From IMG/VR virus record IMGVR_UViG_3300045988_092522, positions 1 through 51,331 of that record: a DNA stretch of 51,331 nt. One strand, 5' to 3'. Position numbers and translations under genes: made by a program. Origin of the DNA: a virus. A model generated the notes under the pieces. It did not search any database. It worked only from the letters and a program-made list of their open reading frames with translations, and was not told where the DNA came from. Every line of letters starts with the position of its first letter. The stretch's first letter is position 1. This document shows positions 40,256-43,157 of the stretch, in pieces.

Positions 40256-40459
40256 TTAGTAGATGTCCGAGCGCGTCGTTGCGACTCTGCGCCCGATTTC
40301 CGGCTCCAGCGCATAGCGGGAGGAGTCGATGCAGTTATGCACAATCAGCCCGCCGTTGACGGCGAAATTGTGAAATCGCTCGACCTCCATGTTATACACG
40401 GGTTCAGCCGATCTGCGCTTTACGGCCTTCACGCGCACGTATTTTTCGCCTTCACTCAT
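40256..40459 (-). CDS. terL: C-intein (42 aa) fused to the 25-aa C-terminal extein of the large terminase
   Basis: [42 protein letters not shown]|CIDSSRYALEPEIGRRVATTRSDIY. ATGA overlap with the methyltransferase stop. An upstream in-frame ATG at 40522 is an alternative start. Confidence 0.8.
   Translation of the reverse strand: MSEGEKYVRVKAVKRRSAEPVYNMEVERFHNFAVNGGLIVHNCIDSSRYALEPEIGRRVATTRSDIY
40334..40459 (-). other. Split intein, C-terminal half (blocks F and G, ...LIVHN then Cys+1)
   Basis: VYNMEVE..HNF and NGGLIVHN-C are canonical Hint C-terminal motifs. Confidence 0.8.
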
Positions 40460-41703
40460 ATCGCCATTTTCTCCTGAAGGGTCAGCCGCGCCCGAATTTC
40501 GTCTGCCTGACGTTTTAGGCAATACAGGCGCTCCGTCACCTTTTTCTGATGTTTTGCTCCTTGCATTAATTGTCGCTTTTCAATTTCTGCTAGCGTTGTA
40601 AAACGATCATCATCGATACAATACTCGGAAATGATGATTGGCGCGGTCTGTATATCCGCCCAGTCCAGAAATGCCGCTCGGTCAAACCGCACGCCGTAGC
40701 TGTCTGCGGTGCAGTTATATGGAATATCGCAGTACACCACTGCGTCTCCCGGGATCTTCACATTACGATAATCAAGTCCAGAAACTTGCAGCCCTTGCAG
40801 CCCTTGCAGCCCTTGCAGGCTTTGCAGGCTTTGCAGCCCTTGCAGCCTTTGCAGCCCTTGCAGCCCTTGCAGGCTTTGCAGGCTTTGCAGCCCTTGCAGG
40901 CTTTCCAATTTGTTCAGCTTCTCGTTCAACACCGCCCAGGGAATCGTCAGCCCCGGTATGATGGTTTTCATTTTCTCGTAGGCTTCTTCCGTCGGCAGCG
41001 CCCATTGGCTTTCGCCGAAATAATGCCCAGCCATACCGTTGGTTCCCAGCAATCTGTCCACGTCGCTGGCGCGCTTTTCGCTGTCCCGAAGAGCCGCGCG
41101 CATATATTCGCGGATTTCTTTCGAATGCGCACGGAATACGCTCTCGCGGGTATTCTCTGCGTCAATACTTCCATCCGCGCGTTCAACTGGGGCCGCGCCG
41201 CATTCTGCGCATAGCCGTCGTGCCTTTCCGCTCAGCGCATCCACATCCCGATTCAGACGATTGAATTCCGCCACAAAGGCCCGCCATGCACTCATACGCT
41301 CGGCGACTGTGTCTGCGAAAACAAGTTCGTGCAGGCGCTTCTTGAAGGGCTCGATTTCCTTCGCGTATAAATATGCATGACTATCATTCCCAAACGACCA
41401 GCATAGCCGCACATAAGCGTCCGTATCCTTCAGCCGGAAAAAGTCCTCTCTGGAAATCCAACGCTTTTCTGTTTCCGTCGTGTATTTTCCGGCAATTGCG
41501 TCCATAAACAGTTGCGGCACATCGCCGTGAAGATCGTTGGCAATAATCCGCTCCCATTTCCCGGACAGCAGCGCCGCATGTGTCACCGCGCAGCCCCCGC
41601 AAAACAAATCGACCAGCGTTCCGCTCTCGGGCAGGTGTTGGATCACCCAATCTGCAATCGCGTTTTTGCTCCCTTTGTATGGCAACCCATATCGCCGCAT
41701 CAT
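40456..41703 (-). CDS. D12-class (Dam-like) N6-adenine DNA methyltransferase located between the two intein halves
   Basis: [14 protein letters not shown] (the YxGxK-type N-terminal motif), [11 protein letters not shown] (FxGxG, SAM binding) and VYCDIPY (DPPY variant). ATGA overlaps at both ends. Confidence 0.85.
40785..40901. repeat. In-frame tandem repeat, 13 x 9 bp (cttgcagcc / cttgcaggc / tttgcaggc / tttgcagcc), encoding (LQ[G/S/R])13
   Basis: Counted by hand. The unit pattern AAABCD ADABCD B suggests a 54-bp higher-order duplication. Confidence 0.9.
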
Positions 41704-43157
41704 TTTACCTCCAAAATTTCATCGTCCTCCGCGATCTGACGCGCCGAAACCCATCCGCGCCGGGTCAGGATCGGATGCTCGCCGCTCGCTCGGAGGATTC
41801 GACCGTCCTCCAGCTCGATTTCGAAAATCTCCTCCGCCCCCGTCTGCCGAACGTTAAAAAAGCGAGCCGTCACCGCTCGCTCGTTTTCCTCGTCGTAGCA
41901 GATCACCGCGCCGGTCTGACCGACCAGCTCGTCGATGCGCTTTTCGCCGTCCACGGTGCATACCAGCGTGTCTCCGGTCAGGCAGTGGTTGTCCTTGTCC
42001 GGATACGCGGGGAGGAAATTCCCGTTCTTGTCCTGCAAATATTCGTATTTCTGGAATTCCCGGGCGATGTTGGGCGTTCGCCGCGGGTCGACGACGATTG
42101 CGCCCAAGTCCTCCAGCCATCGCATGCCGTGCTCCACGCTGCCCGCGCCCTTGCGAACGCCAACGGCGGTCACGCCACGCCGCTTCAGCTCGGCGATCAT
42201 CCGCGGGTCGGCGCTGTCGCAGCGCACGATCTCCCGCCCTGCCAGCGCGGCGACCTTTTCCGCCAGCGTGTCGATGTTGGTGTGGGAGCCGTAGTACTCG
42301 GCGACGGCATACAGCCTGCGCGTCCTGCGGCTGTAGGCCCAGCGTGTGAAAGCGTCCGGATCGGTGGCAAAGCCGAAGTCGAGGCCGTTGTAAAAGGTCT
42401 CAAGGGAATCAATTTCCTTGGAGTCGATCTCCCGCAGCTCGAGATTATCGAACACATTGCCGCCGGTGCCCGTGACCTCGCCCAGGTACTCGTTGCGATA
42501 GGCGCGCTCGTTGGTGGCGCGGATGCTGTCTGCGAGGGCGATGAACGATTCGCCCAGCCAGTCCCGATGCTCGGAAATCACGTCCAGATAGGTACTGGAA
42601 TGGATAAATCGATCCGCCCGAGGCTTCAGCGCCTCCTCGTTGACCCAGTTCTGCGCCGTTTTGGGCGGGTTGTAGGTGAAAATCGTGACGGCCCGATCCA
42701 CGCCGCGAAGCACGGACTGCTGGATGGAATGCACGTCCTCCAGCGAGCGGAACTCCGTCAGCTCCTCAAACCACAGAAATTTGAAATAGCCGCGGGTCAG
42801 CGTGATGGACTTGGACTTCATGGGATCGTCGGCCCCGCGGAACATGATGCGCTGGCCCGTGTCCACGCGGGCGATCTCCAGCGGCGATTTACGGAACTTG
42901 AAGAGCGACTCCCAGCCGAGGCGGCCGATGGCCGTGGCGATAGCCGCGTATACGCTGTCGGCGAGGGTGTTGCCCACGCGGCGGTATACGATGGCGTTGG
43001 CGCTGGTGTCCTCCAGCAATCCCATGACGATCTGCATGGCGGCGAAGGACGACTTGGTTGAGCCTCGGCCGCCCAGAAGCCAGTACTCCGCATGGCCCAT
43101 GCGCCCCATGTCCTCGGAGACCTCGTTGAATTTGCTGCACGTCACCACGCGCGTCAT
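41700..43157 (-). CDS. terL: Large terminase N-extein (391 aa, PBSX/XtmB-like) fused to the N-intein (94 aa)
   Basis: Walker A LLGGRGSTKS. The body runs through ...LPAYPDKDNH and then switches to CLTGDTLVCTVDG...ASGEHPIL...EILEVK-stop. Confidence 0.85.
   Translation of the reverse strand: MTRVVTCSKFNEVSEDMGRMGHAEYWLLGGRGSTKSSFAAMQIVMGLLEDTSANAIVYRRVGNTLADSVYAAIATAIGRLGWESLFKFRKSPLEIARVDTGQRIMFRGADDPMKSKSITLTRGYFKFLWFEELTEFRSLEDVHSIQQSVLRGVDRAVTIFTYNPPKTAQNWVNEEALKPRADRFIHSSTYLDVISEHRDWLGESFIALADSIRATNERAYRNEYLGEVTGTGGNVFDNLELREIDSKEIDSLETFYNGLDFGFATDPDAFTRWAYSRRTRRLYAVAEYYGSHTNIDTLAEKVAALAGREIVRCDSADPRMIAELKRRGVTAVGVRKGAGSVEHGMRWLEDLGAIVVDPRRTPNIAREFQKYEYLQDKNGNFLPAYPDKDNHCLTGDTLVCTVDGEKRIDELVGQTGAVICYDEENERAVTARFFNVRQTGAEEIFEIELEDGRILRASGEHPILTRRGWVSARQIAEDDEILEVK
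41703..41984 (-). other. Split intein, N-terminal half (blocks A and B)
   Basis: Cys1-LTGDTLV (block A) and SGEHPIL (block B, TxxH-type); 94 aa and then a stop. Confidence 0.8.

Follow-up and report, generated by a model that had tools for sequence, protein, structure and literature searches.

A predicted split intein in a phage terminase gene with a methyltransferase gene between its halves

How does a phage whose only large terminase gene (terL) lies in two separate pieces make an intact terminase, and how did a gene for a DNA methyltransferase come to lie between those pieces? Both questions are raised by the window analysed here, a stretch of 51,331 nucleotides (nt) which is the whole of IMG/VR virus record IMGVR_UViG_3300045988_092522. 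Our analysis suggests that its terL is very probably a fractured gene, divided by a split intein, in the gap of which a methyltransferase gene has taken the place of the HNH endonuclease gene that occupies the same gap in related phages. The ends of the window carry an exact terminal direct repeat of 119 nt (1..119 and 51213..51331), and so the window is a circularly assembled, complete phage genome of ~51.2 kb. It probably belongs to a phage of gut Clostridia, a host assignment made at class level only; the relatives of its TerL found in a genome collection were at most 64% identical and came from metagenome-assembled Clostridia, Oscillospiraceae and Lachnospiraceae.

The divided terL gene and its intein

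The terL locus occupies positions 40256..43157 of the minus strand as three tightly packed open reading frames (ORFs), which start 1454, 1244 and 2698 nt apart and thus lie in three different frames (Table 1). An earlier note on this DNA, made from its letters alone, had described this three-part layout, with the frames chained by ATGA stop/start overlaps, and inspection of the ORFs, frames and junctions bore it out, with the overlaps found at 41700-41703 and 40456-40459 of the window. In four of the five other contigs with the same arrangement the methyltransferase starts at ATGGCA and the N-intein ORF is ~20 codons longer, and the first overlap is therefore not universal. The N-terminal ORF runs in order from its Walker A motif to ...YPDKDNH, passes from there into CLTGDTLVCTVDG and continues through the N-intein to its stop, and the C-terminal ORF reads VYNMEVERFHNFAVNGGLIVHN/CIDSSRYALEPE across the end of the intein and the start of the extein (here and below a slash marks a splice point). 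The two intein halves are thereby carried on the same strand by neighbouring ORFs with 1.24 kb between them, and no promoter-like or terminator-like site was predicted on the coding strand within the 40256..43157 unit.

Table 1. Features of the terL locus and of the related upstream site, in window coordinates (aa, amino acids).
Feature	Position	Strand	Description
TerL N-extein and N-intein ORF	41700..43157	-	485 aa: 391 extein and 94 intein residues
terL N-extein	41985..43157	-	391 codons, up to ...YPDKDNH; holds the ATPase domain (Walker A GGRGSTKS) and the greater part of the RNaseH-like nuclease domain
N-intein	41703..41984	-	94 codons, CLTGDTLV...ASGEHPILT...EILEVK; stop TGA 41700..41702; net charge -11
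GGAGG Shine-Dalgarno	41708..41712	-	In intein Leu-Glu-Val codons; 4 nt upstream of methyltransferase ATG (41701..41703)
Dam-family methyltransferase ORF (predicted)	40456..41703	-	415 aa
9-nt tandem repeat, (Leu-Gln-x)n	40785..40904	-	Tandem Repeats Finder: period 9, 12.8 copies; inside methyltransferase, directly before motif IV
AGGAG restart signal for C-intein ORF (predicted)	40471..40475	-	ATG 40457..40459 comes 11 nt later, overlapping methyltransferase stop (ATATGA)
C-intein and C-extein ORF	40256..40459	-	67 aa: 42 intein and 25 extein residues
C-intein	40334..40459	-	42 codons; net charge +2
terL C-extein	40256..40333	-	25 codons and stop, CIDSSRYALEPEIGRRVATTRSDIY; completes nuclease motif DNH/xID..RYA
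Empty alternative site for methyltransferase gene	44472..44512	-	Module boundary upstream of packaging genes; from blastn synteny and junction sequences

The terminase is of the PBSX/SPP1 type, both domains of which were found by Pfam on the 485-aa ORF (Terminase_3, the ATPase, at residues 27-227, E 3e-34; Terminase_3C, the nuclease, at residues 260-393, E 8e-12), and the N fragment alone scored 101.9 bits with TIGR01547, slightly below the cut-off of 105.05. When the 391 and 25 extein residues were joined, the resulting TerL aligned with the SPP1 G2P nuclease (2wbn, E 4e-41) straight across the junction, which places the intein within the conserved nuclease motif ...DKDNH-x-ID..RYA..., and this alignment, together with the intein-free alleles described below, upholds the claim that the 25 C-extein residues restore that motif. 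A second intact terL, named beforehand as something that would speak against the reading of a fractured gene, was looked for by tblastn with an intein-free TerL as query and was not found in the circular genome, the search returning this locus only.

Each half of the intein was recognised by its hidden Markov model when the check proposed in the earlier note was run, the N half scoring 38.9 bits with TIGR01445 (intein_Nterm) against a curated NCBIfam cut-off of 24.5, and the C half 25.8 bits with TIGR01443 (intein_Cterm) against a cut-off of 15.6. The N half has the Cys1 nucleophile (CLTGDTLV) and the block B His (SGEHP), and the C half has blocks F and G, the terminal His-Asn and the +1 Cys (VYNMEVERFHNFAVNGGLIVHN/C). 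The halves stand on separate ORFs and together make up one complete HINT domain, and when joined they align from residue 2 to residue 136 with a mini-intein of 137 aa, Spl DnaX (7cfv, E 9e-13), and also with Npu DnaB (4o1r); the exteins rejoin, and alleles without the intein exist. The element is predicted to be a class-1 intein, inserted between the His and the +1 Cys of DKDNH/CID and split at the canonical endonuclease-insertion loop. Its 94/42-aa geometry had been likened to that of known split inteins, and both lengths do fall inside the ranges given for the halves of fractured genes (88-105 aa for N halves, which are acidic, and 33-54 aa for C halves, which are basic; PMC2677866).

In every split allele the splicing residues (Cys1, the block B His, block F, the terminal His-Asn and the +1 Cys) are invariant and their neighbours vary. 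Among the alleles split by the methyltransferase the ratio of non-synonymous to synonymous substitution rates (dN/dS) was 0.13-0.25 for the N-intein and 0-0.19 for the C-intein, values that come from small counts (for the window against contig L003, the N-intein has 8 synonymous and 6 non-synonymous changes and the C-intein 4 synonymous and no non-synonymous ones) and from pairs that are not independent; both halves are, on these ratios, under purifying selection.

From the conserved catalytic residues, this purifying selection and the homologous split in the phage isolate BL3 (described below), we infer that the halves trans-splice. Translational coupling on one late transcript would give three proteins, of which the N-intein product, with its acidic intein half, and the C-intein product, with its basic one, would associate and splice to yield a TerL of 416 aa with an intact nuclease site, and the methyltransferase would be made alongside as an independent cargo that methylates DNA.

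Split inteins associate tightly, and this property, with the complementary charges of the two halves, would also suit an arrangement in which the TerL fragments work unspliced, the intein halves merely dimerising so that the nuclease site is held together non-covalently. We consider this improbable, as all of the splicing residues are invariant in the split alleles while the residues beside them vary, and as an intein of 136 residues between the His and the Asp of the nuclease metal site would, judging from the 2wbn alignment, probably disrupt that site. Removal at the level of RNA, by an intron carrying the methyltransferase gene, was also considered and was rejected: a permissive Rfam scan of 39800..43700 was empty and the overlapping ORFs leave no room for a ribozyme.

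The methyltransferase gene

That a complete gene for a D12 N6-adenine methyltransferase lies between the intein halves, as the earlier note had it, agrees with the score of the 415-aa ORF against PF02086 (51.5 bits against a cut-off of 22, E 1.5e-13). Its motifs DLFCGGCAV and DIPY (motif IV, read as CDIPY) are both invariant in 53 homologues, and the protein was counted in the D12 class, which we defined by PF02086 above threshold, an S-adenosylmethionine (AdoMet) motif FxGxG and a catalytic motif (D/N)PP(Y/F). An AlphaFold2 model built with the 53 homologues had a predicted local distance difference test score (pLDDT) of 79.6, and the closest Protein Data Bank structures found for it by Foldseek were those of T4 Dam (1yf3) and E. 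coli Dam (4rtl). Both matched at probability 1.0, and the target-normalised TM-scores (0.45-0.5) are lowered by a large insert in the protein. This insert, of ~240 residues and mostly helical, separates motif I from motif IV. By family and by modelled fold the passenger is thus predicted to be a Dam-family (D12 class) N6-adenine DNA methyltransferase. A nuclease domain concealed in the insert was ruled out, permissive Pfam searches giving nothing there and AlphaFold2 with Foldseek giving only Dam enzymes. In having the D12 fold and motifs, in being encoded by a phage and in having no partner restriction enzyme in view, the protein resembles the orphan Dam-like enzymes of other phages (T4 Dam and P1 Dmt); it differs from them in its helical insert, in a variable (Leu-Gln-x)n repeat and in the location of its gene within the intein of another gene.

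The methyltransferase gene has a dN/dS of ~0.2 (range 0.15-0.5) and is, on that measure, under purifying selection. Its G+C content is 53.7%, against 62-64% in the neighbouring genes. The number of Leu-Gln-x units differs, always in frame, between near-identical alleles (~7, 10, 13 and 16 units, in proteins of 388-418 aa), and the members of the 90%-identity cluster of the protein range from 394 to 418 aa; the repeat might be a spacer of variable length that affects target recognition. The same repeat was seen across the wider methyltransferase family, including a homologue from Alistipes, and is modelled as a low-confidence helix. An exact look-up of the methyltransferase of the window in the contig index gave no match, and the same protein is present in the protein database (as P0001). 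GATC, counted as a hint to the target of the methyltransferase, is present in the window genome at 0.88 of its expected number, which is unremarkable and no sign of depletion. As a separate observation, CTAG is strongly depleted in the whole window (4 observed against 27 expected).

Alleles of the terL site and the route of the methyltransferase

The earlier note had called for a search of related phages for intein-free, mini-intein and endonuclease-split alleles at the same DNH/C point, and all of these were found. The site is empty, and terL contiguous, in contigs L013 and L016 and in Bacillus phage Lurz3 (DKDNH-TIDATRYAF), and homology of the window to the first two breaks at 41982 and 40335, as for a clean 1.65-kb insertion of intein plus methyltransferase. 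A contiguous mini-intein is present in L008 (...EILEV-SGHTL-RVRSVKRR...), L004, L006, L088 and L087, the last of which has the same backbone as the window and 97% extein identity. The intein is split by a free-standing HNH_3 gene of 213-221 aa in L009 (where the ORF matches PF13392 with E 1.6e-15), L086, L089-L092, L097, L098 and L099, and by the methyltransferase gene, with the same junction sequences, in the window and in L003, L010, L011, L012 and L062; in the cultured Brochothrix phage BL3 the split intein has only an HNH remnant. The notion that the methyltransferase sits in a slot that normally houses a homing endonuclease is strongly supported by L009, L099 and L086, whose intein halves are >93% identical to those of the window and whose HNH gene lies at exactly the same junctions, the N-intein of one of these HNH alleles (P0124/L099) being one residue different from that of the window.

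Among the 120 best TerL homologues, ~16 clusters match a split N half in length and ~8 match a contiguous intein form, the remainder being intein-free. The distant split alleles that were inspected carry an HNH gene, which indicates that the HNH form is the widespread state and that the methyltransferase form is a derived sublineage.

At the left junction, which falls in the GGAGG encoded within the intein, all alleles share ...GAAATTTTGGAGGTA and diverge after it. This GGAGG would be the ribosome-binding site for the ATG of the HNH gene in L009 and for that of the methyltransferase gene in the window. At the right junction the HNH and methyltransferase alleles become homologous again from TACGTGCGCGTG (YVRV), and these two kinds of allele therefore have both junctions in common. 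No HNH remnant was found in the gap of the window beyond ~14 codons which overlap the C-intein coding sequence and are common with the HNH allele. In L006, where the methyltransferase gene lies outside terL, it has its own ribosome-binding site, AGGAGGAAAATCATG, which is a microhomology with the intein sequence GGAGGTAAA. The 3' end of the gene, CAGGAGAAAATGGCGATATGA, is identical in L006 and the window, and in L006 its ATG starts the next gene. This identity suggests that the methyltransferase cassette brings its own restart signal with it, which would now initiate the C-intein, and it would be for this reason that the insertion is tolerated.

L006 shares its arrangement with L004 and L088, in all three of which a methyltransferase 71-73% identical to that of the window is encoded at the head of the packaging operon, upstream of terS and terL, and has the ATATGA coupling at its 3' end that is seen in the window, while the intein of their terL is contiguous. 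These flanks recur in the window at ~44472-44512 without a gene there. Near this module boundary is a terminator-like hairpin (44628..44602), synteny with all relatives breaks at ~44491-44498, and L062 has at the boundary a different insert of ~600 nt that includes a small ORF resembling ribbon-helix-helix (RHH) proteins. More distant homologues of the methyltransferase lie in replication modules (L005, L007), and these, with the low G+C content of the gene, mark it as mobile and accessory. The marker substitutions of the intein arms do not sort by allele type (HNH, methyltransferase or contiguous) but are intermixed, which points to recombination through the conserved arms, and against the empty-site alleles nucleotide identity jumps from 81% on the left to 94-96% on the right exactly at the point of intein insertion. 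Taken together, these patterns fit the capture of a pre-existing phage methyltransferase gene, complete with its coupling signals, into a pre-existing slot of the HNH type.

The terL of the window is itself a mosaic. In comparison with L003, L008, L009 and L010, its ATPase half (about 42850..43157) is 63-65% identical at the nucleotide level, and the region from its nuclease half (41985..42850) through the portal gene is 92-98% identical. We considered whether the cassette is much younger than its flanks and rejected this, as the intein-methyltransferase unit is no outlier in that 92-98% range; the mosaic breakpoint lies in mid-terL and there is no sign of recent independent mobility of the cassette.

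Several points weigh against our preferred reading, that the only terL of this phage is a fractured gene in whose gap a methyltransferase gene took the place of an HNH gene, which we still regard as very probable. The direction of the swap is deduced from the common junctions, and the methyltransferase gene may have replaced an HNH gene or have entered a mini-intein; the intein alleles are mosaic, and their history is thus not a simple tree; block B reads SGEH, with Ser at the position usually held by Thr; the substitution counts for the intein halves are, as noted above, small; and the contigs are all derived from metagenomes. The last of these would also favour the view that the locus is an artefact of misassembly, or a dead element in a decaying prophage with a broken terL. 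That view seems to us highly improbable, given that six contigs, the products of independent projects and assemblers, agree in their junction sequences (the methyltransferase-split contigs come from JGI, ENA and Logan assemblies), that the 90%-identity cluster of the methyltransferase has 21 members, many of them on ~50-kb contigs and one an NCBI 'Caudoviricetes sp.' record, that none of the three ORFs is broken and all show purifying selection, and that the genome is complete and circular.

What the methyltransferase gene does in this position can be read in more than one way. It may be neutral or selfish cargo, for which the intein loop is a tolerated landing pad, the conserved halves acting as homology arms between which the contents (HNH or methyltransferase gene, or no gene at all) are swapped by ordinary recombination during co-infection, and the methyltransferase gene hitch-hiking on an essential gene. 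The evidence for this lies in the HNH, methyltransferase and insert-free alleles, whose intein arms are >93% identical with their marker substitutions intermixed, in the use of the same junctions by both inserts, in the sharp change of identity at the intein site in the empty alleles and in a G+C content of the methyltransferase gene 8 points below that of its neighbours. The purifying selection on the methyltransferase, however, suggests that the protein matters to some function of host or phage. We hold this to be a real possibility, short of an even one, and it is compatible with our preferred account and does not exclude it.

Alternatively the placement may be adaptive, tying synthesis of the methyltransferase in amount and timing to that of the terminase, such that genomes are methylated just before or during packaging; this could serve protection from host restriction or methylation-dependent recognition of a pac or cos site, of the kind reported for phage P1. 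In its favour are the purifying selection on the methyltransferase, its presence already at the head of the packaging operon in relatives, the predicted translational coupling on both sides of it and the retention of the arrangement across backbones that share only 63-65% nucleotide identity in the ATPase half of TerL. It is weakened because the upstream location of the gene in L004 and L006 would give late co-expression equally well; distant homologues, moreover, lie in replication modules, and GATC is not depleted in the genome, nor does anything tie the target of the enzyme to a packaging site. We therefore think an adaptive origin of the placement rather unlikely.

A tentative proposal is that the gap of the split intein can serve repeatedly as a docking site, its contents being exchanged between co-infecting phages by way of the conserved arms, and that the methyltransferase was recruited there for guaranteed inheritance and terminase-coupled expression. 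If this were true, split inteins could spread useful genes and would not only be relics of invasion by homing endonucleases. By the usual account a split intein originates in the breakage of an intein by a homing endonuclease gene, and to our knowledge any gene lying between the halves has encoded an endonuclease; in the present case the slot is evidently open to capture by a functional cargo gene. One phage lineage presents five states of a single site in near-identical backgrounds, which allows natural alleles to be used for direct tests of how split inteins arise and turn over, and the contiguous intein of L008 or L087 together with the split one of the window offers a matched cis- and trans-splicing pair of possible use in protein engineering.

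Comparison with other split inteins

Fractured genes were described from phage-like metagenomic loci in which adjacent ORFs carry the halves of a split intein and are separated by a free-standing homing endonuclease gene, the host genes being gp41, NrdJ, NrdA, IMPDH, DnaE, ligase and terminase (Dassa et al. 2009, PMC2677866). The window resembles these in that its halves are on the same strand, close together, broken at the endonuclease-insertion loop and in a phage context, and in that the N half (-11) and the C half (+2) have complementary charges. Its siblings L009, L097, L098 and L099, with an HNH_3 gene in the gap, resemble them fully, except that the endonuclease is of the HNH_3 family and not GIY-YIG or Vsr-like. 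The window itself differs in that the intervening gene encodes a methyltransferase with no nuclease domain by Pfam or structure search. The terminase among those earlier genes is gp17-like and atypically split, with a C part of 122 aa, and represents another intein at another site.

Natural split inteins in phage large terminases are also known as AceL-TerL and GOS-TerL, for which trans-splicing was shown experimentally (PMC11766414). Unlike the intein of the window these have an atypical split (25-37 aa in the N-intein, 104-115 aa in the C-intein) and come from marine or Antarctic metagenomes, and no methyltransferase cargo is reported for them (PMC11766414). In actinobacteriophages contiguous terminase inteins have been described, some with out-of-frame or antisense endonuclease genes (bioRxiv 10.1101/2025.01.02.630785). 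They are like the window in carrying a passenger gene in another frame than the splicing domain; they are unlike it in that the intein ORF is unbroken and that only endonuclease genes are nested in it.

The closest counterpart of the locus is in BL3 (NC_015254; L001 727..2607), a phage whose complete genome was deposited as that of a cultured isolate, where gp2 and gp3 encode the same terminase type with the same insertion point (EDKDNH/C...HN/CIDATRYAF) and a homologous intein in two ORFs (the N halves are 36% identical, the C halves with the extein 57%). In BL3, unlike the window, only 10 nt separate the halves and no intact gene lies there, but an HNH remnant of ~60 codons extends across this gap in a third frame (2229..2411). 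The BL3 record gives gp2 as 'terminase large subunit' and gp3 as hypothetical, with no intein annotated, and a literature search on BL3 and inteins gave no earlier description, though this search was incomplete and such an absence is not proof. Fractured terL genes of the HNH type are common in phages of gut Clostridia and present in BL3, and have gone unannotated there.

The earlier note had suggested novelty both for the methyltransferase as cargo and for terminase as the fractured host gene. The first part stands so far as our literature search reached, which found no report of a methyltransferase or other non-endonuclease gene between split-intein halves; it too was incomplete, and absence from it is not proof. 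The second part does not stand, in view of the terminase in PMC2677866, of AceL-TerL and GOS-TerL (PMC11766414) and of BL3. The arrangement is accordingly a fractured gene of the type of Dassa et al. in all respects but the endonuclease identity of the intervening gene, and the novelty is narrower than first claimed.

Some neighbouring genes may be mentioned. In the position of the small terminase gene, an ORF at 43154..43618 on the minus strand overlaps the start of terL by ATGA; it had no Pfam match to a terminase small subunit and only a sub-threshold match to Cas6, and the same position in relatives is held by unrelated small ORFs or Terminase_2 genes. In two related contigs (L005 6665..9287 and L098 156..776), precomputed Pfam matches to Csf1 and Csf3 (type IV CRISPR-associated proteins) lie beside SSB and methyltransferase genes. 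A minor capsid protein resembling SPP1 gp7, encoded at 37332..38846 on the minus strand (Phage_min_cap2, E 1e-50), ends in an Ntox50 toxin domain (36.5 bits against a cut-off of 22.2), in place of which its counterpart in L004 has PBECR2, and the C-terminal effector domain of this protein appears to be swappable.

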